Shown: one piece after another, positions 1-57,100 of the stretch | Layout of the letters: each line of letters opens with the position of its first letter | Numbering within the stretch: position 1 is the stretch's first letter | Assembly (NCBI RefSeq): GCF_054482595.1 | Contig: NZ_CM137008.1 | DNA length: 64,000 nt | Direction: 5' to 3' (one strand) | Notes under the pieces: generated by a model | What the model was told of the DNA's origin: nothing | Database searches by the model: none | The model's input: the letters and a program-made list of their open reading frames with translations, nothing else | Position numbers and translations under genes: made by a program

Positions 1-770
<770 letters not shown>

Positions 771-1044
771 TTATAATTGAATTAATCCACGGATGCGATA
801 GTTGAGATCTTACATATTGTTGGTTAAAGAGATGTAGATCAAATTGATCGTAATTAAGCTTTTTTGATTATGTCCGAATTCGGACAAATGCTTTATAAAA
901 AAGGGTTTTAGCTTCATATCCTTCAAGTAATGAGGGAGAAAACAAGGCTGATAACCTTATTTTCCCGCCCTCATTTCGAGGCAGCATTTTGTGCTCTGTT
1001 TAAAATTTGTGATCACTGTGTGATTTTCACAAAAGCCACACTAT

Positions 1045-1938
<894 letters not shown>

Positions 1939-1974
1939 TTACCTCATCAATCGCTTGTAGTTATATGTTGTGTT

Positions 1975-2008
1975 GTGCACATCTATCCGTTTAGACGTCC
2001 AGATGTAA
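1975..2008 (-). promoter_or_regulatory. metF operator with tandem MetJ met-box-like octamers
   Basis: Minus-strand reading gives acatctGGACGTCTaaacggatagatgtg immediately upstream of metF, matching the AGACGTCT met-box consensus. Confidence 0.6.
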
Positions 2009-2283
2009 AGATGAAGGAAAAGCCGAAGGGCGTCAACCGAAAAATGACCAATGATGGTGAGGAAAAATCAGGGAAGATGAAAAAACTTCAGGATGGTAAG
2101 AAAAAGAAAATCCGGTATGCAAAGCAAACCGGACTGCAAATATTAACTAACCATGTACTTATTGCTTCTTGCCGGATTCGTCGTAAACGCTTCATCCGGC
2201 CTAATCCTATGATAATTCAATATATTTCATTAGAAACCATAGACCCGAAAACATGAGTACCGGACATTATTAAATTTCTGAAA

Positions 2284-4716
2284 TTACAACAACTGTGCCA
2301 GCCGGTTGATATCCGACTGAATCGCCCCGGCGGTGACGTCGCGCCCCGCGCCAGGCCCACGGATCACCAGCGGGTTATCGCGATACCAGCGGCTTTCGAT
2401 GGCAAAGACGTTGTCGCACGGCAGCAGTGATGCCAGCGGATGGTCTTCACGCACCGCCTCCACGCCCACACGCGCTTTGCCGTTGGCATCGAAACGCGCC
2501 ACGTAGCGCAGCACCAGCCCCATTTCGCGGGCCGCTTCCAGCCGTTGCACCATCTGCTCGTTAAGTTCATCGCCATTTTCAAAGAAATGGTCGATGCTGC
2601 CGCCTTCGCAATGAGCAGGCACCAGCGATTCCACACGTACCTGGTCCGGTTCAATGTTGTAACCCGCTTCACGCGCCAGAATCACCAGCTTGCGCATTAC
2701 GTCTTTGCCGGAGAGGTCGTCACGCGGATCAGGCTCGGTTAAGCCCTGCTGCCACGCCTGATCCACCAGCTCGGTAAACGGCACGCTACCGTCGAATTGC
2801 AGGAACAGCCAGGAGAGCGTGCCGGAGAAGATCCCACTGATCGACAAAATAGTATCGCCGCTGTCGATCAGATCGCGCACGGTGTGGTTGATCGGCAAGC
2901 CCGCACCGACGGTGGCGTTGTACAGCCAGTGACGCCCGGTTTTTTCGAAGGCGTCGTGGATCTGGCGATATTTATTGCTGTCGCTTGCTCCCGCCAGTTT
3001 GTTGGCACTGATGACGTGGAAACCGTGGCTGGCGAAATCAAGATACTGGTCAGCCAGCTGCTGGCTGGCGGTAACGTCCAGCACCACTAAATCATCATAC
3101 GGATGGGCGCGCATCCACAGGAAAAGCGACTCTTCATCCTGCTCGACCGCTTCATCGTTGAAGAAGGCTAACGCGCGGCTGGCGTCCAGCCCGTCATAAC
3201 TCAACAGACTGCGGCGGCTGTCCACCACGCCTGCCAGCACAAATTCAAAGCCGGTACGCGCCGAAAGCGAGCTCTGCTCGCGGGCGAACAGTTCCAGCCA
3301 GCGGGAACCGATATTGCCTTTGCCGAACAATACCAGGCCGATGCGTTTTTCTGCGCGGAAGACGGACTGATGCAGGCCCTGAATCAGGCTTTCGGTCGGG
3401 CCGGTGCGCAGTACTGCCACCAGGCTGATGCCGTCATCGGACTGCCAGGTAAACTCGACCGGCTGGCCTTTCAGTTGCTGCCAGAAGCGGTGGCAATGCA
3501 GCGGGTTACGGGTGACACCCGCCCCGACCATCGCCACCAGCGCCAGCCCCTGACGCAGGCGCAGTTCGCCAGGTAATCCCGCTTCGTCGAGGATTTTCAG
3601 CGCACTGTCGGCCACTTCTGAGGTGTAGCAAAATTGCAGCAACTGGCGATCGTTATGCACGCCAACCGCCAGTGGACGCACCTGGGCACGTTTCAGGATT
3701 TGGTCGATCTCTTTATGCGCCAGTTTGAAATCCTGACTGGCGGGCACCTGAAACTCAATCAAACAGACATCATCGTGGCTGGTGACAATACGCGCACCAG
3801 TACCGGAGGCCAGCACGCGTTCAATGCGCGTGGAACCTTGATCCGGCGTGTAGCTACAGCGCAGCTGCAGGTCGATTTCGCTGCCAGAAACTGGCTGTAA
3901 AGTACGGGCGTGAAGAACGGGAGCCGCCAGACGCGCCAGTTCGCTGGCCTCATCCAGACGCAGCAACGGCAGCAGGCAGGCATCTTTCACTTTACGCGGG
4001 TCGGCACTGTATACCCCGGCGACGTCGCTCCAGATGGTTACGCGAGAAACACCCGCCAGCGCACCGATTTGTGTCGCGGAATAGTCGGAACCGTTACGCC
4101 CCAGCAGCACCGTTTCACCGGCGTTGTTACGGCTGATAAACCCGGTCACCACCAGACGTTTACCCGGATGTTGTACCAGTAGCTGTTGCAGCAACGGGTA
4201 AGAAAGCCCTTCATCAACCTGCGGTTGCGCAGCGCGTTCAGCGCGTAAAAACTCGCGGGCATCAAGCCAGGCCGCTGGCAGCCCTTGTTGATTAAGTACC
4301 GCAGACATCAGTCGCGCCGACCACACTTCACCGTGGCCCACCACTTCCGCATACACTGCGTCGTTAATACCGCTGTCGAGCAGCGCCGCCAGGCGCTCAA
4401 GATCGCTGACAAAAGCGCTAATGAGGCTATCGGCTTCTTCGGCGGGTAGCAGGCCGCTAATCAGATCGCACTGATAGCGACGCAGCGTTTGTTGAACCTG
4501 ATGCGCAGAGAGACGATCGGTCTGGCTTAGTTTCAACCAGTTAATCAACTGGTTAGTGGTGCTACCGGCGGCGGAAACCACCATCATATCGTCAGGCTGA
4601 GAGTACTCCGCCATAATGCCCGCGACACGCAAATAACACTTCACATCAGCCAGACTACTGCCACCAAATTTATGCAGCTGACGACCTTTCGCCCCTGCCT
4701 GCGCAATCACACTCAT
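2284..4716 (-). CDS. metL: Bifunctional aspartokinase II / homoserine dehydrogenase II
   Basis: 810-aa ORF MSVIAQAGAKGRQLHKFGGSSLADVKCYLRVAGIMAEYSQPDDMMVVSAAGSTTNQL... recognised as MetL. Confidence 0.95.
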   Translation of the reverse strand: MSVIAQAGAKGRQLHKFGGSSLADVKCYLRVAGIMAEYSQPDDMMVVSAAGSTTNQLINWLKLSQTDRLSAHQVQQTLRRYQCDLISGLLPAEEADSLISAFVSDLERLAALLDSGINDAVYAEVVGHGEVWSARLMSAVLNQQGLPAAWLDAREFLRAERAAQPQVDEGLSYPLLQQLLVQHPGKRLVVTGFISRNNAGETVLLGRNGSDYSATQIGALAGVSRVTIWSDVAGVYSADPRKVKDACLLPLLRLDEASELARLAAPVLHARTLQPVSGSEIDLQLRCSYTPDQGSTRIERVLASGTGARIVTSHDDVCLIEFQVPASQDFKLAHKEIDQILKRAQVRPLAVGVHNDRQLLQFCYTSEVADSALKILDEAGLPGELRLRQGLALVAMVGAGVTRNPLHCHRFWQQLKGQPVEFTWQSDDGISLVAVLRTGPTESLIQGLHQSVFRAEKRIGLVLFGKGNIGSRWLELFAREQSSLSARTGFEFVLAGVVDSRRSLLSYDGLDASRALAFFNDEAVEQDEESLFLWMRAHPYDDLVVLDVTASQQLADQYLDFASHGFHVISANKLAGASDSNKYRQIHDAFEKTGRHWLYNATVGAGLPINHTVRDLIDSGDTILSISGIFSGTLSWLFLQFDGSVPFTELVDQAWQQGLTEPDPRDDLSGKDVMRKLVILAREAGYNIEPDQVRVESLVPAHCEGGSIDHFFENGDELNEQMVQRLEAAREMGLVLRYVARFDANGKARVGVEAVREDHPLASLLPCDNVFAIESRWYRDNPLVIRGPGAGRDVTAGAIQSDINRLAQLL

Positions 4717-4718
4717 TT

Positions 4719-5879
4719 TTACCCCTTGTTTGCAGCCCGGAAGCCATTTTCCAGGTCGGCAATTAAATCTTCGCCATCTTCAATACCGGTGGAGATACGC
4801 AGCAGCGTCTCGGAGATCCCGGCGGCAGCACGCGCTTCTGGCGCCATGCCTGCATGTGTCATGGTTGCGGCGTGAGAGATTAAACTTTCCACTCCCCCTA
4901 ACGATTCCGCCAGCGTAAACAACGACAGCCCGCCCAGGAAACGACGCAGCGTCTGCTCATCGCCATCCAGTTCAAAACTCAACATTGCGCCAAAGCCTTT
5001 TTGCTGACGCGCGGCAATTTCATGCCCCTGATTTTCCGGCAGCGACGGGTGATACAGTTTTTTCACCAACGGCTGGGTTTGCAGATATTTCACAATCGCC
5101 TGCGCGTTGCGCTGCGCCAGCTCCATACGCGGCACCAGCGTTCGCAACCCGCGTAGCAGCAGATAGCTGTCAAACGCGCCGCCCGTCACGCCAATATTGT
5201 TTGCCCACCAGGCAAGTTCAGTGACAACGTCCGGGTCTTTAGCAATCACCACGCCAGCCACCACGTCAGAGTGACCGTTCAGATATTTCGTACATGAATG
5301 CAACACCAGATCGGCACCCAATGCCAGCGGATTTTGTAATGCCGGGCTTAAGAAGGTGTTATCCACCACGCTCACCGCCCCGACTTCCCTTGCCAGATGG
5401 CAGATTTTCGCAATATCCACGACGCGTAACAATGGATTACTTGGGCTTTCTACCAGTACCAGTTTGGGGTTTTCTGCCAGCGCTGCCCGTAATGCCTGTT
5501 CATCGCCTTGATCAACAAACAACACGCGATAGCAACCGCGTTTCGCCAGGCTGTCGAACAGGCGATAGCTACCGCCGTAGCAGTCGTGCGGCGCAACCAG
5601 CAGATCGCCAGGTTTCAAAAAGACGGTCGTTACCAGGTGAATCGCGGACATGCCGGTATTAGTAAGTACTGCACCAGCACCGCCTTCCAGTTCTGCCAGC
5701 GCACGCTGAACCACATCGCGCGTTGGGTTGCCGCGACGCGAGTAATCATGCGCGCGCGGTTCATTAAATCCGGTAAAGTTATAGGTGCTGGAAAGATGGA
5801 TGGGAGGGACAACGCAACCATACTGTTCGTCGTCATTTAACCCGCTACGCACTGCGATGGTGGCCTGTTTACGCGTCAT
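4719..5879 (-). CDS. metB: Cystathionine gamma-synthase (PLP-dependent)
   Basis: ORF track gives 445 aa, but recognised MetB begins at internal MTRKQATIAVRSGLNDDEQYG...; ATG at 5879 gives 386 aa; 3 bp downstream of metL start (metBL operon). Confidence 0.9.
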   Translation of the reverse strand: MTRKQATIAVRSGLNDDEQYGCVVPPIHLSSTYNFTGFNEPRAHDYSRRGNPTRDVVQRALAELEGGAGAVLTNTGMSAIHLVTTVFLKPGDLLVAPHDCYGGSYRLFDSLAKRGCYRVLFVDQGDEQALRAALAENPKLVLVESPSNPLLRVVDIAKICHLAREVGAVSVVDNTFLSPALQNPLALGADLVLHSCTKYLNGHSDVVAGVVIAKDPDVVTELAWWANNIGVTGGAFDSYLLLRGLRTLVPRMELAQRNAQAIVKYLQTQPLVKKLYHPSLPENQGHEIAARQQKGFGAMLSFELDGDEQTLRRFLGGLSLFTLAESLGGVESLISHAATMTHAGMAPEARAAAGISETLLRISTGIEDGEDLIADLENGFRAANKG

Positions 5880-5940
5880 GTGATGAAGTTCCCTGGGCTT
5901 GGTCGGTGAAATGTCAGGCACCAGAGTAAACATTGTGTTA

Positions 5941-5976
5941 ATGGACGTCAATACATCTGGACATCTAAACTTCTTT
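5941..5976. promoter_or_regulatory. metB/metJ divergent control region with met boxes
   Basis: ggacgtcaatacatctggacatctaaac: tandem 8-bp units resembling AGACGTCT in the metB-metJ intergenic region. Confidence 0.6.
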
Positions 5977-6155
5977 GCGTATAGATTGAGCAAATCCCAA
6001 ATAGCCGTTAAAATTATATGCATTATCACGCCGACAGATGCATTACACGATGTCACGGTAACGCCTGTACGGTAAACTATGCGGGTTTACGGTCAGTACC
6101 CACATAAATTGTGTGGTCTGGTCTCAATTTATTGACGAAGAGGATTAAGTATCTC

Positions 6156-6473
6156 ATGGCTGAATGGAGCGGCGAATATATCAGCCCATACGCTGAGCAC
6201 GGCAAGAAGAGTGAACAAGTCAAAAAGATTACGGTTTCCATTCCTCTTAAGGTGTTAAAAATCCTCACCGATGAACGCACGCGTCGTCAGGTGAACAACC
6301 TGCGTCACGCTACCAACAGCGAGCTGCTGTGCGAAGCGTTTCTGCATGCCTTTACCGGGCAACCTTTGCCGGATGATGCCGATCTGCGTAAAGAGCGCAG
6401 CGACGAAATCCCGGAAGCGGCAAAAGAGATCATGCGTGAGATGGGGATTAACCCGGAGACGTGGGAATACTAA
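6156..6473 (+). CDS. metJ: Methionine repressor (ribbon-helix-helix)
   Basis: [62 protein letters not shown]... recognised as MetJ (105 aa); ORF-track start 6111 is an upstream extension. Confidence 0.95.
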
Positions 6474-6532
6474 AGCGGAAAAGAGCGGCGCGGAGTTAAC
6501 CTGCCGCTTTTTTCATACAAGGACGTTTAACG

Positions 6533-7141
6533 ATGAAAATCAGGCTACTGATCCTCAGCCTGCTGGTTTCTGTGCCTGCCTTTGCCTGGCAGCCGCAAAC
6601 TGGCGACATCATCTTTCAAATCTCTCGCTCATCGCAAAGTAAAGCGATCCAACTGGCGACCCATTCCGATTACAGCCACACCGGTATGCTGGTGATGCGT
6701 AACAAAAAGCCCTACGTTTTTGAAGCGGTCGGCCCGGTGAAATACACCCCGCTCAAGCAGTGGATTGCCCATGGTGAAAAGGGCAAATACGTTGTTCGCC
6801 GCGTTGAAGGCGGACTGAGTGTTGAACAACAGCAAAAACTGGCGCAAACGGCGAAACGTTATCTCGGCAAACCGTACGATTTCAGCTTCTCATGGAGCGA
6901 CGATCGCCAGTACTGTTCGGAAGTGGTGTGGAAGGTTTATCAGAATGCGCTGGGAATGCGCGTGGGCGAACAGCAGAAGTTGAAAGAGTTTGATCTCAGC
7001 AACCCGCTGGTCCAGGCGAAGCTCAAAGAACGCTACGGCAAAAATATTCCGCTTGAGGAAACGGTAGTTTCACCACAAGCCGTTTTCGACGCGCCACAAC
7101 TCACCACGGTCGCCAAAGAATGGCCGCTGTTTTCGTGGTAA
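6533..7141 (+). CDS. yiiX: YiiX family protein (permuted papain-fold/NlpC-P60-like putative lipid-binding hydrolase) with signal peptide
   Basis: 202-aa ORF MKIRLLILSLLVSVPAFAWQPQTGDIIFQISRSSQSKAIQLATHSDYSHTGMLV..., recognised as YiiX. Confidence 0.9.
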   Translation: MKIRLLILSLLVSVPAFAWQPQTGDIIFQISRSSQSKAIQLATHSDYSHTGMLVMRNKKPYVFEAVGPVKYTPLKQWIAHGEKGKYVVRRVEGGLSVEQQQKLAQTAKRYLGKPYDFSFSWSDDRQYCSEVVWKVYQNALGMRVGEQQKLKEFDLSNPLVQAKLKERYGKNIPLEETVVSPQAVFDAPQLTTVAKEWPLFSW

Positions 7142-7285
7142 TGGATGATAAAAAAAATAATTCCCGCCGTAGTCTGTTTGTTGCTTTGTAGTTGCACGAC
7201 CTTTCCGCAAGCTGTCGCTCCGGTAAACGGTGATGCCTCCAATTAGTTGAATTAAGGATATAATACTCGCTTTTAAGGTTGTTTC

Positions 7286-7558
7286 ATGGTCACAGTTAAC
7301 CTTCATTGTCCCCGTTGCCAGTCCGTTCAGGTTTACCGTCACGGGCAGAACCCCAAAAGACATGATCGATTCCGCGGCCGTGACTGTCACCGGGTATTTC
7401 AGCTCAGTTACTGTTACGAGCCCCGTAAACCGGGAGTTAAAGACCAAATCGCTGAAATGGCTTTCAACGGTGCCGGGGTTCGCTATACTGCCCGTACGCT
7501 GAAAATCGGCATTAATACAGTCATCCGAACTTTAAAAAACTCTCGCCACGAAGAATAA
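7286..7558 (+). CDS. insA: IS1 InsA-like protein (zinc-finger/HTH)
   Basis: 90-aa ORF MVTVNLHCPRCQSVQVYRHGQ...NGAGVRYTARTLKIGINTVIRTLKNSRHEE; CxxC...CxxC layout and C-terminal LKNS tail as in IS1 InsA, but strongly diverged. Confidence 0.8.
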   Translation: MVTVNLHCPRCQSVQVYRHGQNPKRHDRFRGRDCHRVFQLSYCYEPRKPGVKDQIAEMAFNGAGVRYTARTLKIGINTVIRTLKNSRHEE

Positions 7559-7990
7559 CGTCATCCCCGGTCGCTCATGCTGATGTGGCACTCATCTGCG
7601 AACTTAGTCAGCAATGGAGCTTTGTCGGCAGTAAAGCGCGACAGCACTGGCTCTGGTACGTGTACAACACGAAAACTGGTGGTGTTCTGGCCTACACTTT
7701 TGGCCCCCGGACTGATGAAACCTGTCGTGAATTGCTGGCGCTGCTTACCCTTTTACCATCGGCATGTTGACCACTGACGAATGGGGTAGTTACGCTAGAG
7801 AGTTACCAAAGGAGAAGCATCTGACTGGTAAGATTTTTACTCAGCACATTGAGCGTAACAATCTGACCCTGAGAACCCGAATCAAACGTCTGGCCCGCAA
7901 AACCATCTGTTTCTCGAGTTCTGTAGAACTTCATGAAAAAGTCATCGGTGCTTTTATCGAAAATATATGTTCTACTAATTGGAGTCATCA
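7540..7990 (+). pseudogene. insB: IS1 insB-like transposase region carrying an extra frameshift
   Basis: InsB-like similarity (QQWSFVGSKARQHWLWYVYN...) continues in one frame to a stop near 7770, then resumes in another frame (YPFTIGMLTTDEWGSYAREL...HEKVIGAF). Confidence 0.6.
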
Positions 7991-8047
7991 CCCTTCTGAT
8001 GAGCTTTCCTTGGATGATTACCAGACTGAATACACAGCCAAAGATTT

Positions 8048-8371
8048 TTACCTCATTCTGCTCTTTTTTCTCAAATGACATATATTATATTTTACATCAT
8101 ATTCATAGGCATATGACATTCCCCCGCCCCCCATTATGTCATTGTGGGTTGATGTTGGGCTTTCATAAAAAAATACATCTTTTTTTGAACTAGCATTAAT
8201 TATATTTACTTTATATATTAAAATATTTTCTCCATCTGGAAATATTTTAGCCACACAATATAAAGCAGCTAAATCCGAATTACTTAAAAATACATTGTCA
8301 TCACTCATAACTCCAGCCATTAAATGACTGGAGACTAAAGCAAGGAAATAACAACATTGTATTGCCTTCAT
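8048..8371 (-). CDS. Putative immunity protein for the adjacent Rhs C-terminal toxin; hydrophobic N-terminus
   Basis: ATG at 8371 lies 1 nt after the toxin stop (8373-8375) with GGGAG 8 nt upstream; product MKAIQCCYFLALVSSHLMAGV... about 107 aa; AT-rich. Confidence 0.65.
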   Translation of the reverse strand: MKAIQCCYFLALVSSHLMAGVMSDDNVFLSNSDLAALYCVAKIFPDGENILIYKVNIINASSKKDVFFYESPTSTHNDIMGGGGMSYAYEYDVKYNICHLRKKSRMR

Positions 8372-8372
8372 T

Positions 8373-9410
8373 TTAATTACTCCCTTGCCTGATAATTGTA
8401 ACTCCATTCCCTTTAGCTTTGGGATTATATTTTAGATAGGTGTTATTTGGTGTTCCCAAGTAACTACTGTATTCTTTTTTTCCCATTCCATTCATATAAG
8501 AATTCGTTAAATCTTTGCTTGAAAAATTTAGACTATCATAAACATCATTTTCTTTTGTTACTTTATTTCCTTTATCGTCAGAGTAAAAACCGTGAGTGTG
8601 ATAATCGCCTACTCTCTCTGAACCTTCAGGGCATTTTATATTTCGCAAGTCTACACTATCATTATCATTTGAACTTATCGGATTCATGGGAAAATATTCA
8701 CCTTGCTTCTTACATATTAGTCCACCATATTCTTTAATCTCGTTAATTGATTCTCCATTACACATTGCCAATGCAAATATTCCAATATCATCTATATTTT
8801 TTGATTTAAATTCATATAATCCCAATGGATCCATGCCATTCACCGGGCTCAGCGGATATGTATACAGGTTCCATCCCCCCTTCAGCCCAATCGGATCCTG
8901 AGTGATATACCGCCCCTGCAGCGGGTCATAATAGCGGTGGCGGTTGTAATACAGGCCGGACTCCTCATCATACTGCTGACCCGGCAGGCGGATGAGCTGC
9001 TGCAGCTGGTGCGGGTTCTCTTCATTCAGCAGGTTGCCCCATTCATCGTATTCTGCGCACCATTCTGTAGCCCCTTCCGTGCTGATAAGCGCCAGCGGCA
9101 GGCCGCGATGGTCGCAGTGGTACAGGTGGATTTTTCGCGCCGGCGTGTACACCGGGTCCATCTGGTTTTGCATCTGCTCCACCGTCAGGCCGCACGATGC
9201 CAGCCAGCGGCGACTTTCCTCACTCACCCGGTCAGCCAGGATTTCACTTTCCAGCCGGTCGAGCATCTGCACCAGCACCGGCGGGAACACCACACTGCCA
9301 CCGTCTTCGCCGCCGGACTGCTGAAGCGCATCCGCCAGGCTGCGGCGCTGCGTTTTCGCCAGCTCACCGGTGGCGGTTTCAACCCTGATGAGTGGCGTGA
9401 AGCCAGGGCA
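8373..9410 (-). CDS. Orphan Rhs core-end plus C-terminal toxin domain (5'-truncated, no native start)
   Basis: Frame is open from the H-repeat junction (about 9410): [32 protein letters not shown]...[17 protein letters not shown]...[10 protein letters not shown] followed by a 147-aa AT-rich variable domain (about 8373-8816). Confidence 0.8.
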
Positions 9411-10653
9411 AGATTACGAAAGCCCGCTCCCCGCAAGGACTGACGCCAGATAGTTTCTGTCCATGGCTGCTTTTCGCATCTTACGTCTTAACCCTGCCTT
9501 GAATACCTTATCATTCGTCAAAATATTAATAGCAATGTGCCGTATCCCTGAAAATAATTCTGCTGCATTTCCTCTTCTTATTTTGCAGTCGTCTTCATTC
9601 ATTACCACGTCCAGACGCCAGTGCAGCTTATTCTCCACGTGCCAGTGATTTCGGATCGCTGTGGCGAATTTCTCAGCGGTTAAATCAGCAGAACTGATAT
9701 AATATCTGACCGTCATTTCTGGCTCTTTCTTTTGCTCTGCTATTATGGACCGAAAGGAGACTGCCACGCATAATTTCTTCAGCCCTTTCCATTCAAACGT
9801 GAAATCAATAAGTTCATCAGGGACATCGCAAACAATATGAAGACGGATTTCTTCTCTGCCGTGACTCTTTTCACTAATTGCGTAACTGTCATGCTCTGGA
9901 TTATTTAATTCTTTCAGCGGAAATTTTTCCTCAAAGGCTTTATTAAGCCGCCCCTGGTTACCTTTTACCGCGAATAAATAATCACCGCCCTGTTTTTGTA
10001 TCTTCTCTGCGATATCTTTCTGGCAACCCATCGCATCAGTTGTGATAATTTTCCCTTTAATATCCAGCATGTTAAGAAGTTCAGGGATAGCTGTAATCTC
10101 ATTAGATTTCTCATCCGTCTTGATCTGTCCGATGACCAGACTGTGCATTGTTGAGAACGCACTAATGACATGAATCGCTCCCCTGCGGCGACTCTTGTCA
10201 TAAGAATGCCGGAGCGTTTTTCCATCAATTGCAATGACGTCTTTATCATCTGAAGAATGACAATCACGCATCCAGTTAATAAAGCACTCATGAAATTTTG
10301 TAGGGCTGATACAGGATACAACTCTGGCAATGGTATCGTGAACAGGAATACCATTTTCAAAATCACCATATTGCTTCAAAAAATCGAGATGTGTTTCCCC
10401 AAAATCCTCTATATCTTCCCAACCTTCTGCACCCGAAATAACGGCACAAATAGTCAACAGTAGAATATCTGATAATTTATGTTCCACTTTCTAGGCTTGT
10501 CTGTAATCGGGGATAATAGAAATATGTTCCATCAATTTTTTAAGTTCCATTTTGTTCTCCTTAATTATACAAGGAGTATTTGATCATGTATAAGCAATAA
10601 AAGACAGCTTTAGGTAATGAGGAATATCTCAATTTTTAAACATAAAATGCGAA
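9411..10653 (-). mobile_element. H-repeat (ISAs1-family) element inserted within the Rhs remnant; boundaries approximate
   Basis: Contains the ISAs1/H-rpt transposase reading frame; flanked by the Rhs N-terminal fragment on one side and the Rhs core-end on the other. Confidence 0.6.
9414..10550 (-). pseudogene. ISAs1-family (H-repeat-associated, YhhI-like) transposase with in-frame amber stop at codon 20
   Basis: ATG at 10550 reads MELKKLMEHISIIPDYRQA then TAG (10493-10491), continuing in frame as [37 protein letters not shown]... (357-aa ORF from GTG at 10487). Confidence 0.75.
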
Positions 10654-11076
10654 TTATTTAGTACAAAAAGTGTACTTCTGATGATCTTTCCCTGGAAACA
10701 GGTGCTCAAAATACAGGCTTCTGCCGCCGTTATCACTGAGTATCAGTGTGTTATCGCGCAGCTGTAAGCGGATATCCGCAGGCATTTTCCAGCCGGGGCC
10801 GAGGCTCCCCACCGGCGCGGGCGTTTTTGTCCGATAACTGCTGTAGGTGCGGGAGAGAATGAACGGCAGCGGGGCGGGCAGGGCGATGTCGGTTTCACCG
10901 GGAAGGACCTTTGCACCCAGCAGCGGATTGACCGGATGGCCGGACGTCACCCCGCCGGGGCACACCGAACAGGCCACGCCGGTGGGGGCACCGATGCGCA
11001 CCCCGGCTGAACCCTGGACAATGCTACCGCCATACTGCGTCATGTCGCCCTGACGCGCCGCCGGTTTTCCGCTCAT
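10654..11076 (-). pseudogene. Rhs N-terminal fragment (PAAR domain) truncated after about 125 aa of Rhs sequence
   Basis: MSGKPAARQGDMTQYGGSIVQGSAGVRIGAPTGVACSVCPGG...LRDNTLILSDNGGRSLYFEHL is the typical Rhs N-terminus; unrelated tail FPGKDHQKYTFCTK then stop. Confidence 0.8.
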
Positions 11077-11193
11077 CGTAAAATCCTTTTGAAATAAATA
11101 AGAACCAGAAGCCTAGCGCCAGTCAACAACAGGAAATGATAATGAGTTAACACCCCGGAATTTTTCAGAATTTATAAAAGGCAAATTACAGGC

Positions 11194-11223
11194 ACAAAAA
11201 AAGCGCCGTGCGGCGCTTTTTTC
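11194..11223. terminator. Bidirectional rho-independent terminator downstream of rpmE
   Basis: aaaaaaa GCGCCG tg CGGCGC tttttt: GC stem with A-run on one side and T-run on the other. Confidence 0.7.
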
Positions 11224-11235
11224 GGAAATCCGGTC

Positions 11236-11487
<252 letters not shown>

Positions 11488-11491
11488 CTAA

Positions 11492-13849
<2,358 letters not shown>

Positions 13850-36392: not shown

Positions 36393-36490
36393 ACTCCGCA
36401 TTTGTAGGCAGGATAAGGCGTTTACGCCGCATCCGGCATTTGAGCAGGATGCCTGATGCGACGCTGATAGCGTCTTATCAGGCCTACACT
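36393..36490. repeat. REP/BIME element downstream of cpxA
   Basis: tgtaggcaggataaggcgtttacgccgcatccggca ... gcctgatgcgacgctgatagcgtcttatcaggcctac. Confidence 0.85.
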
Positions 36491-45276: not shown

Positions 45277-45600
45277 GCCGGATGCGGCGCGAGCGCCTTA
45301 TCCGGCCTACAGGTCGGCAACAGTTGTAGGCCTGATAAGACGCGACAGCGTCGCATCAGGCATTGATTGCCGGATACGGCACGAGTGCCTTATCCGGCCT
45401 ACAGGTCGGCAATAGTTGTAGGCCTGATAAGACGCGACAGCGTCGCATCAGGCATTGATTGCCGGATGCGGCACGAGCGCCTTATCCGGCCTACAGGTCG
45501 GCAATAGTTGTAGGCCTGATAAGACGCGACAGCGTCGCATCAGGCATTGATTGCCGGATGCGGCACGAGCGCCTTATCCGGCCTACGGGTCGTGCATCCG
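45277..45600. repeat. Tandem BIME array: about 3.5 copies of a 92-bp unit built from REP palindromes
   Basis: gccggatgcggc recurs at 45277, 45369 (as gccggatacggc), 45461 and 45553, period 92 bp; each unit has an inverted REP pair (gccttatccggcctaca / tgtaggcctgataag...gcatcaggc). Confidence 0.9.
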
Positions 45601-54143: not shown

Positions 54144-57100
54144 ATGCAGGTCAGCAGAAGGCAGTTCTTTAAGATCTGCGCTGGCGGTATGGCAGGCACC
54201 ACGGCAGCGGCACTGGGTTTTGCACCCAGCGTAGCACTCGCGGAAACCCGGCAGTATAAACTGCTGCGCACCCGCGAAACCCGTAATACCTGCACCTATT
54301 GTTCCGTAGGCTGTGGGCTGTTGATGTACAGCCTCGGTGACGGAGCAAAAAACGCCAAAGCATCTATCTTCCATATCGAAGGCGATCCGGATCACCCGGT
54401 CAACCGCGGTGCACTTTGTCCGAAAGGCGCTGGCCTGGTGGATTTCATCCACTCCGAAAGCCGTCTGAAGTTCCCGGAATACCGTGCCCCTGGTTCTGAT
54501 AAATGGCAGCAAATCAGTTGGGAAGAGGCGTTTGATCGCATCGCCAAACTGATGAAAGAAGACCGCGATGCTAACTACATTGCGCAAAACGCCGAAGGCG
54601 TGACCGTTAACCGCTGGCTCTCCACCGGGATGCTGTGTGCTTCCGCGTCGAGTAACGAAACCGGCTATTTAACGCAAAAATTCTCCCGCGCGCTGGGTAT
54701 GCTCGCGGTCGACAACCAGGCGCGTGTCTGACACGGACCAACGGTAGCAAGTCTTGCTCCAACATTTGGTCGCGGTGCGATGACCAACCACTGGGTCGAC
54801 ATCAAGAACGCCAACCTCGTCGTGGTGATGGGCGGTAACGCCGCTGAAGCTCACCCGGTCGGATTCCGCTGGGCGATGGAAGCCAAAATTCACAACGGCG
54901 CGAAGCTGATTGTGCTCGATCCTCGCTTTACGCGTACGGCGGCAGTGGCTGACTACTATGCCCCTATTCGTTCCGGTACTGACATTGCTTTCCTGTCAGG
55001 CGTATTGCTGTACCTGCTGAACAATGAAAAATTCAACCGCGAATACACCGAAGCCTATACCAACGCCAGCCTGATCGTGCGTGAGGATTACGGCTTTGAA
55101 GATGGCCTGTTCACCGGCTACGACGCAGAAAAACGCAAGTACGATAAATCCTCCTGGACTTACGAACTGGACGAAAACGGCTTCGCCAAACGCGATACCA
55201 CGCTGCAACATCCGCGCTGCGTGTGGAACTTGCTGAAACAGCACGTTTCCCGCTACACGCCAGATGTGGTTGAAAACATCTGTGGTACGCCAAAAGACGC
55301 GTTCCTGAAAGTCTGCGAATACATCGCAGAAACCAGTGCTCACGATAAAACTGCCTCGTTCCTGTATGCCCTCGGCTGGACGCAACACTCCGTTGGTGCG
55401 CAAAACATTCGTACGATGGCGATGATCCAGCTGCTGCTCGGCAACATGGGGATGGCAGGCGGCGGCGTTAACGCCCTGCGCGGTCACTCCAATATTCAGG
55501 GGCTGACGGACCTGGGCCTTCTGTCGCAGAGCCTGCCAGGTTACATGACGCTGCCAAGCGAGAAGCAGACCGATCTGCAAACCTACCTTACCGCCAACAC
55601 GCCAAAACCGCTGCTGGAAGGCCAGGTAAACTACTGGGGCAACTACCCGAAATTCTTCGTCTCCATGATGAAGGCTTTCTTTGGTGATAAAGCAACGGCG
55701 GAAAATAGCTGGGGCTTTGACTGGTTGCCGAAGTGGGATAAAGGCTACGACGTCCTGCAATACTTCGAGATGATGAAAGAGGGCAAGGTCAATGGCTATA
55801 TCTGCCAGGGCTTTAACCCTGTTGCCTCATTCCCGAACAAAAACAAAGTGATCGGTTGTCTGTCGAAACTGAAGTTCCTCGTCACCATCGACCCGCTGAA
55901 CACTGAAACCTCTAACTTCTGGCAGAACCACGGTGAGCTGAACGAAGTTGACTCGTCGAAGATCCAGACCGAAGTGTTCCGTCTGCCATCGACCTGCTTC
56001 GCGGAAGAGAACGGTTCTATCGTAAACTCAGGTCGCTGGTTGCAGTGGCACTGGAAAGGTGCGGACGCCCCAGGGATTGCGCTGACTGATGGCGAGATCC
56101 TCTCCGGTATCTTCCTGCGCTTGCGCAAGATGTATGCCGAACAGGGTGGCGCGAACCCGGACCAGGTGCTGAACATGACCTGGAACTACGCCATTCCGCA
56201 TGAGCCGAAGTCGGAAGAAGTAGCGATGGAGAGCAACGGTAAGGCGCTGGCCGATATTACCGATCCGGCAACCGGTGCGGTTATCGTCAAGAAAGGCCAA
56301 CAACTTAGCTCGTTTGCCCAACTTCGCGATGACGGTACAACTTCCTGTGGTTGCTGGATTTTCGCCGGTAGCTGGACGCCGGAAGGCAACCAGATGGCAC
56401 GCCGTGATAACGCCGATCCGTCTGGCCTCGGTAACACGCTGGGCTGGGCATGGGCATGGCCGCTTAACCGCCGCATTCTGTATAACCGCGCCTCCGCAGA
56501 TCCGCAGGGTAACCCGTGGGATCCGAAGCGTCAGTTGCTGAAATGGGACGGCACTAAGTGGACCGGCTGGGATATTCCGGACTACAGCGCAGCGCCTCCG
56601 GGTAGCGGCGTCGGGCCGTTTATCATGCAGCAGGAAGGCATGGGGCGTCTGTTTGCCCTCGATAAGATGGCGGAAGGTCCGTTCCCGGAACACTACGAGC
56701 CGTTTGAAACGCCGCTGGGAACTAACCCGCTGCATCCAAACGTTATCTCGAACCCGGCTGCACGTATCTTTAAAGACGACGCCGAAGCATTGGGTAAAGC
56801 CGATAAGTTCCCGTATGTCGGAACCACCTATCGTCTGACCGAGCACTTCCACTACTGGACCAAACACGCGCTGTTGAACGCGATTTTGCAACCAGAGCAG
56901 TTTGTGGAAATCGGGGAGTCGCTGGCGAATAAACTTGGCATTGCCCAGGGCGATACCGTGAAAGTCTCCTCCAACCGTGGCTATATCAAAGCCAAAGCGG
57001 TGGTGACCAAACGTATTCGTACGCTGAAAGCGAACGGCAAAGATATCGATACCATCGGTATTCCGATTCACTGGGGTTATGAAGGCGTAGCTAAAAAAGG

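Follow-up and report, generated by a model that had tools for sequence, protein, structure and literature searches.

Between the genes yiiX and rpmE, the 64,000-nucleotide stretch of Escherichia coli DNA analysed here (assembly GCF_054482595.1, contig NZ_CM137008.1; called the window below) carries about 4 kb of sequence with two pieces of an rhs gene, separated by an insertion sequence (IS) with both ends intact, ISEc1. We propose, with a probability of roughly 0.85, that an rhs locus already known from E. coli, that between yiiX and rpmE/priA, is present here as a decayed allele. The order of genes around it, metB, metJ, yiiX (6533-7141, plus strand), the 4-kb segment, rpmE (11236-11448, minus strand) and priA, is that of the E. 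coli chromosome. In K-12 strain MG1655 yiiX and rpmE are adjacent, 60 bp apart, as the original prediction, made from the sequence alone, had stated; here the stop codons of yiiX (7141) and rpmE (11236) are separated by 4,094 bp, in agreement with its figure of about 4 kb. That prediction described positions 7142-11190, limits that are right within a few bases, as a composite Rhs-remnant island inserted at this junction. Its order of parts on the minus strand is the one found, each part lying at the coordinates given: the rhs head, ISEc1, the end of the rhs core with a DPLGL motif and a DUF4329 (Tox-JAB-2) tip, and the gene dsORF-f3, followed by a defective IS1 (Table 1).

Positions 6504-9403 and 10691-11700 of the window are colinear with the corresponding locus of strain 120899, and the sole difference is one replacement: 2,773 bp of strain 120899 (locus positions 9924-12696, with a junction ambiguity of +/- 2-4 bp; codons ~128-1051) give way in the window to the 1,292 bp of ISEc1. 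Both rhs pieces align to one intact protein, the 1,394-residue product of the same locus in O157:H7, the head to its residues 1-131 (128/131 identical) and the tail to residues 1050-1395 (340/346 identical). Because of this colinearity and of the alignment of head and tail to one protein, a single gene that lost its middle is the simplest reading. The original prediction had likewise supposed one ancestral rhs gene with an H-repeat now lying between its head and its toxin tail, and it holds in this respect, although its estimate of a lost core of about 1,200 amino acids was too high: about 924 codons, some two thirds of the gene, are gone, and about 197 amino acids of the core survive in the tail. 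What the locus lacks is a continuous YD-repeat core (~1,200 amino acids), as the 1,261 positions of the NCBIfam RHS_core profile are represented by 1-131 and 1067-1261 in two separate open reading frames (ORFs), with positions 132-1066 absent. The prediction had also counted an intact full-length rhs gene in other E. coli as evidence against decay; this was mis-stated, as such genes are found and support the decay.

Compared segment by segment, the window is closest to a single-gene allele (that of O157:H7 or of strain 120899) in five of six segments. Identity to the O157:H7 allele is 99.4% in the metJ-yiiX flank, in the left-hand gene remnant together with IS1, and in the toxin and immunity segment; the rpmE-priA flank is also closest to this allele (97.9%), whereas for the head and the segment upstream of it the nearest allele is that of strain 120899 (98.6%).

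The variants of the site were surveyed in 5,426 complete E. coli genomes. The empty junction of K-12 type is present in 2,958 of them; a segment carrying rhs is marked by the yiiX/IS1 junction in 2,174 and by the rpmE/rhs-head junction in 2,176; and an intact 624-nt gene of the TIGR02117 family, the type of E. coli B, occupies the site in 288. These three alleles (empty, rhs, TIGR02117 gene) cover essentially every genome. The usual occupied state, exemplified by O157:H7, consists of a defective IS1, dsORF-f3 and one rhs gene of 1,394 codons with the same tip as in the window. In strain 120899 and in O157:H7 NE 1169-1 the order is yiiX, defective IS1, dsORF-f3 and a single 4,185-nt rhs gene adjoining rpmE, intact in the latter and with one internal stop in the former. 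The stretch of toxin and dsORF-f3 occurs in 2,107 genomes, the tip itself (f3) in about 40% of E. coli genomes, and in an even sample down the ranking of matches the stretch lay under a gene named as full-length rhs in 26 of 31 rows. A rarer, 11-kb composite allele (TUM14771; ~150 of the 175 genomes with a query coverage of 80% or more) begins at the same site with a main rhs gene, which has a different tip and a sel1-type immunity gene; a fragment of rhs, a resident H-repeat and ybfB follow, and last comes the f3 tip with dsORF-f3 as an orphan.

Both ISEc1 junctions of the window, each in one piece, occur in exactly 23 complete genomes, while no complete genome among those searched has only one of them. 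Matches that looked like one-junction intermediates, 30 to the tail junction and 1 to the head junction, were rejected, since each consists of two pieces joined at an rhs locus elsewhere. The 23 carriers, among them strains Santai and XH990, were obtained from humans, poultry, pigs, one otter and water and share 99.3-100% identity across 5.3 kb, and the exact 140-residue chimeric head protein is on record for 198 contigs; because of these independent identical genomes and head records, an assembly artefact is excluded. The allele is real and moderately spread, and probably stems from a single event. In the identical genomes RefSeq labels its pieces 'DUF6531 domain-containing protein, incomplete', 'ISEc1 family transposase, internal stop', 'RHS repeat-associated core domain-containing protein, incomplete', 'RHS element protein dsORF-f3' and 'IS1 family transposase, frameshifted'.

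Table 1. Features of the segment between yiiX and rpmE, in window coordinates
Feature	Coordinates	Strand	Size	Basis or remark
TIGR02117-family gene, 5' remnant	7143..7228	+	86 bp	matches BL21(DE3) locus 6084-6169
Defective IS1-type element (IS1H-like)	7229..7992	+	764 bp	NCBIfam transpos_IS1 on three separate ORFs
dsORF-f3, presumed immunity gene, intact	8048..8371	-	107 aa	RefSeq 'RHS element protein dsORF-f3'
Toxin tip, DUF4329 (Tox-JAB-2)	8373..8816	-	147 codons	Pfam DUF4329 (PF14220), E 8.7e-14
Surviving 3' rhs core	8817..9403	-	~197 codons	RHS_core positions 1067-1261, E 1.4e-114
ISEc1 (ISAs1 family, 'H-repeat'), both ends intact	9404..10695	-	1,292 bp	NCBIfam transpos_ISAs1, E 2.6e-125
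rhs head, PAAR-like N-terminus and DUF6531	10696..11076	-	127 codons	RHS_core and DUF6531 profiles
Upstream region of rhs gene, AT-rich (GC 0.339)	11077..11188	-	112 bp	right end of element, abuts rpmE terminator

Elements of the ISAs1 family measure 1.2-1.5 kb, have inverted ends of CAGGG type and one DDE transposase gene, and produce target-site duplications of 8-10 bp. The ISEc1 copy in the window has the termini CCAGGG...CCCTGG (end sequences CCAGGGCAAGAT and CCAGGGAAAGAT), and no target-site duplication is seen in its flanks, GGCGTGAAG and AAACAGGTG, which differ. Adjacent deletion, or recombination between two copies, leaves one intact IS without target-site duplication, as observed. Its transposase gene (9414-10550) bears a nonsense codon, TGG to TAG at codon 20 (W20). 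The element is 98.1% identical to ISEc1 of strain 05-3629 and 95.4% identical to the resident H-repeat of TUM14771; copies elsewhere are 98-99.5% identical to it. Descent of the window's IS as a hybrid of two H-repeat variants was considered and rejected, since mismatches to the TUM14771 copy are evenly spread and show no recombination breakpoint. The latter copy shares the interval 5010-7747 of the TUM14771 locus with ybfB, the sel1-repeat immunity gene and a short piece of rhs that an internal stop interrupts. On either side of this copy stands an 8-bp repeat, TCATTAGA, at a distance of 4-5 bp from the CAGGG ends.

The head ORF (10654-11076) encodes 140 amino acids, the Rhs codons being followed by 13 codons from the IS end and a stop. 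It matches NCBIfam RHS_core at profile positions 1-131 (E 1e-82) and Pfam DUF6531 (E 3.5e-18), the N-terminal region of clade I type being present. As to its designation as a PAAR fragment, the tetrapeptide PAAR literally occurs at residues 5-8, but the match to Pfam PAAR_motif (PF05488) is weak (best E 0.047 over 19 residues, second E 2.6), and the solid match is that to DUF6531.

The tail as a whole spans 8373-9403. Its frame is terminated by a TAA that lies three codons into the end of ISEc1, as a reading of the letters by hand shows, and its first in-frame start is a GTG at 9293, 38 codons in. The core part further matches TIGR03696 Rhs_assc_core (E 1.1e-23) and Pfam RHS (E 5.8e-15), and the boundary motif PxxxxDPxGL (8817-8846, with DPLGL at 8817-8831) leads to the variable tip, just as the original prediction had read it. 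In the tip the residues HTH (8592-8600, tail residues 270-272) and SSKD (8511-8522, residues 296-299) are present. DUF4329 has been equated with Tox-JAB-2, whose motif consists of E, H[ST]H, S and D, and toxin JAB domains have been suggested to be nucleases rather than peptidases (PMC3482391); another paper, citing others, calls DUF4329 an RNase domain (PMC7216683). The toxin domain of the window is otherwise intact, and its motifs fit Tox-JAB-2, from which its activity is predicted. No solved structure related to the tip by sequence was found, the best match (E 0.18) being an irrelevant one. The AT-richness claimed for the toxin and immunity part was confirmed by calculation: GC content is 0.309 in the toxin and 0.306 in dsORF-f3, as against 0.604 in the tail core, 0.635 in the head and 0.512 in the whole window.

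The presumed immunity gene, dsORF-f3, had been described as overlapping the rhs gene. This applies to a version of 119 amino acids from an alternative start at 8407, which overlaps the rhs stop; the version of 107 amino acids lies at 8048-8371. The gene has the position expected of a cognate immunity gene, directly downstream of the toxin, but no match to a Pfam or NCBIfam family, and differs from other alleles by 1-3 residues; its exact sequence occurs on 626 contigs and belongs to a cluster of 1,460 members. Its N-terminus (8309-8371), MKAIQCCYFLALVSSHLMAGV, is moderately hydrophobic and resembles a signal peptide. If the signal peptide is real, dsORF-f3 and the target of the toxin would be periplasmic, which conflicts with the nuclease and RNase predictions for DUF4329. 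The name dsORF-f3 comes, we presume, from the Hill laboratory and the element RhsF of ECOR-50. The RhsF/RhsFI pair of enterohaemorrhagic E. coli (EHEC; PMC7618764) was considered as a candidate for the present locus and rejected: it is ECs0604 in S-loop 44, a different locus.

The outer edges of the segment are older than its interior arrangement. In the alignment to K-12, homology ends at 7142 and restarts at about 11183-11188 (at about 11183 in K-12 itself, and at 11189 in BL21), and edge alignments reveal no target-site duplication on the outside. Absence from K-12 is confirmed, and the decay reading is not refuted there. As to a composite island insertion, the island is not a recent one, its outer junctions being common to about 2,175 genomes. 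Nor does all of 7142-11190 belong to an island. Positions 7143-7228 are a remnant of a TIGR02117-family gene, which in BL21(DE3) (E. coli B) lies intact between yiiX and rpmE (locus 6089-6712); the remnant stops exactly at the left end of IS1, and its start codon reads ATA. To judge from this match, it is a piece of the older chromosome and not part of the Rhs element. Because the remnant abuts IS1, the IS1 and the rhs element replaced most of an older gene and did not land in an empty site of K-12 type.

The IS1-type element itself is not part of a recent composite but belongs to the old shared structure. IS1 is about 768 bp long, has inverted repeats of about 23 bp and two genes, insA and insB, joined by one programmed frameshift, and generates a 9-bp duplication. 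In the window copy insA is intact (7286-7558) while insB is broken into two ORFs by an extra frameshift, for which RefSeq uses the label 'frameshifted'. Its inverted repeats match at 21 of 23 positions (GGTGATGCCTCCAATTAGTTGAA and GGTGATGACTCCAATTAGTAGAA), and no 9-bp target-site duplication is found in its flanks, CCGGTAAAC and CTTCTGATG. This copy is, on its structure, a defective member of its family and an old component of the shared locus.

Several points weigh against the decay of a single-gene allele. The tail core, the one segment out of six, is marginally closest to the orphan of TUM14771 (97.97%, compared with 97.1-97.5% for the single-gene alleles), all rhs copies of this part being 97-98% alike. 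No intermediate that has the IS but still keeps a complete core was found, so that which came first, insertion or deletion, and which of the two routes was taken can only be put conditionally. A promoter scan over 7000-11500 gave 10 sites, where shuffled controls gave 7.4 +/- 2.7 by chance, and terminator counts over the same interval were also no higher than in shuffled controls. Finally, O157:H7 NE 1169-1, with its intact 1,394-codon rhs gene and DUF4329 tip, has dsORF-f3 (locus positions 5045-5367) annotated as frameshifted, and this weakens the assumption of strong selection on the toxin/immunity pair; if the pair were active, a working toxin gene next to a broken immunity gene would be odd.

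The closeness of the tail core to TUM14771 also speaks for a different history, in which the window would descend from the 11-kb composite by two deletions flanking the resident H-repeat, so that head and tail were never in one frame. Such a composite does exist at the site, and in it an H-repeat oriented like that of the window separates the main gene from the f3 orphan. We nevertheless regard this descent as very unlikely. It needs two deletions ending exactly at the IS termini, where a single-gene ancestor needs one event; the resident H-repeat of TUM14771 is, with its evenly spread mismatches, further from the window's IS than ISEc1 copies elsewhere; identity to TUM14771 is 96.96% in the head and upstream segment, as against 98.2-98.6% for single-gene alleles, and 97.4% in the yiiX flank, as against 99.4%; and the single-gene allele is about ten times commoner than the composite. 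Arrival of the entire 4-kb composite in one step, in its degraded form, by insertion into an empty junction of K-12 type would agree with the 2,958 genomes, K-12 among them, that have no such segment, with IS elements at or near its edges and with the AT-rich cassette. The outer junctions, however, are the same in genomes most of which have an intact gene, which means that the boundaries predate the decay; the edges have no target-site duplication, and the left one is IS1 against a truncated TIGR02117-family gene instead of a K-12 junction. We find such an insertion scarcely credible. Transfer of the allele between strains by homologous recombination in the flanks is possible but would be a replacement, not an insertion.

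A further proposal concerns function rather than origin: the remnant might be active, an internal transcript giving a truncated toxin that would form with dsORF-f3 a toxin-antitoxin-like or regulatory pair. The toxin domain retains HTH and SxxD and agrees with the intact protein at 340/346 residues, as given above, dsORF-f3 is intact, an internal transcript for a truncated toxin and its immunity protein has been reported at a different EHEC rhs locus (PMC7618764), and a type II toxin-antitoxin role has been claimed for Salmonella rhs (PMC7043789). Against these stand the promoter-like sites at chance level, the first in-frame start codon, a GTG that comes 38 codons into the tail, an N-to-I change private to the toxin domain of the window, and the fact that the cited papers deal with other loci and other toxin tips. 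Activity of this kind seems improbable to us.

Under the reading we prefer, decay of the single-gene allele, the ancestor would have carried the defective IS1, dsORF-f3 and one 1,394-codon rhs gene with a DUF4329/Tox-JAB-2 tip, transcribed away from rpmE, an occupied state that persists in roughly 2,000 complete genomes including O157:H7. ISEc1 would then have inserted within the core of this gene, with the loss of about 2,773 bp of adjoining core, either by IS-mediated adjacent deletion after the insertion or by recombination of two ISEc1 copies in the same orientation within one gene. The delivery protein is probably dead, as the 140-residue head product has no YD shell and the tail has neither a promoter of its own nor a start at the junction. 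The tail, which keeps 591 bp of core homology, would be an orphan toxin/immunity cassette able to recombine with another rhs core. Intact dsORF-f3 may protect the cell against neighbours firing the same toxin, and because the gene is intact and about 40% of E. coli genomes carry the tip, orphan immunity is the most plausible residual role of the locus.

A second case, which supports this pattern, is found at another locus. In strain 05-3629 an independent ISEc1 interrupts the core of the rhs gene between yibF and yibH (locus positions 7538-8831), with 195 bp of core missing and with no target-site duplication at this copy; about 30 genomes show the same two-piece ISEc1 pattern at the yibF-yibH rhs locus. 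A different genomic place in strain G3/10 (NZ_CP060075.1, 3497003-3497436) has another truncated rhs head, annotated as 'DUF6531 domain-containing protein', with an end of ISAs1 type some 230 bp away. Transposition of H-repeat elements has never been seen in E. coli (PMC3032704), and the present comparisons are evidence that ISEc1 moved in the recent history of the species. That H-repeats are naturally mobile, prefer rhs cores and make adjacent deletions there is an extension we consider unlikely; if true, H-repeats would repeatedly and specifically inactivate rhs delivery genes while leaving an orphan toxin/immunity cassette behind. That ISEc1 recurs together with deletions in rhs cores is only a mildly new thread, with two cases so far.

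Some further observations concern the site and its surroundings. The empty junction of K-12 (reverse-complement 3717-3727) contains an 11-bp filler, ACGACCAAAAT, similar to the bases at the right end of the rhs element, GGCAAATTA (window 11177-11188), and the right breakpoint of the filler lies at most 1 bp from the right boundary of that element; the empty state of K-12 may be a secondary deletion and not the ancestral condition. To the right of the element, a terminator scan placed a terminator-like site at 11191-11211, which is assigned to rpmE. Between metJ and yiiX, a segment of about 133 bp of repetitive extragenic palindromic (REP) or bacterial interspersed mosaic element type is present in K-12 (reverse-complement 2947-3079), BL21 and strain 120899, and missing from the window (6497-6503), O157:H7 and TUM14771. 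Elsewhere in the window, Rfam models matched at gathering score at 45329-45583, 36407-36484, 54726-54784, 16119-16176 and 11455-11507; these matches are naRNA4 (REP-type; three in tandem and one more), SECIS_3, a ClpQY promoter element and, upstream of rpmE, the L31 leader. Each of them is to be expected in this region of the E. coli chromosome.

Publications already describe the locus, the parts it consists of and how variable it is, and the exact allele stands in the 23 complete RefSeq genomes with its pieces named or marked as pseudogenes. It matters little beyond annotation, as a textbook case of rhs decay in which the shell-forming core is lost in association with an IS while the tip and its immunity gene are kept. 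For genome scans it has one lesson: a test of adjacency in K-12 flags here a polymorphic site with three alleles and not a fresh insertion.

Among known systems, the site corresponds to the clade I rhs locus that Jackson et al. (2009) numbered 11 and placed at yiiX/priA; these authors already scored rhs loci of some strains as 'pseudogene' or 'relic' (PMC2935791). The same site, as region b3936-b3937, is occupied by rhsW7 in the genome of E. coli W and by EcolC_4081 in that of Crooks (PMC3032704). With the intact alleles of locus 11 in strain 120899 and O157:H7 the window shares the site, the outer junctions, IS1, dsORF-f3 and the tip, and its head and tail are 98-99% identical to the intact protein; it differs in the replacement of about 2,773 bp of core (codons ~128-1051) by ISEc1, which makes it a pseudogene. 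In EDL933, z5488 ('RhsB') has a C-terminal DUF4329 motif (PMC7216683). From gene numbering and from the O157:H7 allele, which carries the window's tip at yiiX-rpmE, z5488 is probably the yiiX-rpmE locus; the tips are alike, and the EHEC gene is full length.

ISEc1 of the window agrees with the H-repeats associated with Rhs in its 1,292 bp, its CAGGG-type ends, its ISAs1-family transposase and its position within an Rhs element. Unlike the usual H-repeat, it lies inside the rhs frame and not downstream of it, has no duplication, is accompanied by a large flanking deletion and carries a nonsense codon in its transposase gene. The tail, in turn, is similar to the orphan tip/immunity modules described as 'dissociated tips' or as products of C-terminal displacement (PMC2935791, PMC3150448): like them it is promoterless, keeps a few hundred bp of core homology and has, after a DPxGL boundary, a variable toxin rich in AT, with a presumed immunity gene downstream. 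Unlike those displaced modules, its tip is the original one, left in place when its own core was deleted, and no full-length rhs remains at the locus for recombination in cis. The locus is like a clade I E. coli Rhs toxin locus in its working and derives from one. Because a continuous core is absent, it fails as a functional rhs gene, and the most fitting description is that of a pseudogenised locus 11 allele which has come to resemble an orphan tip/immunity module.

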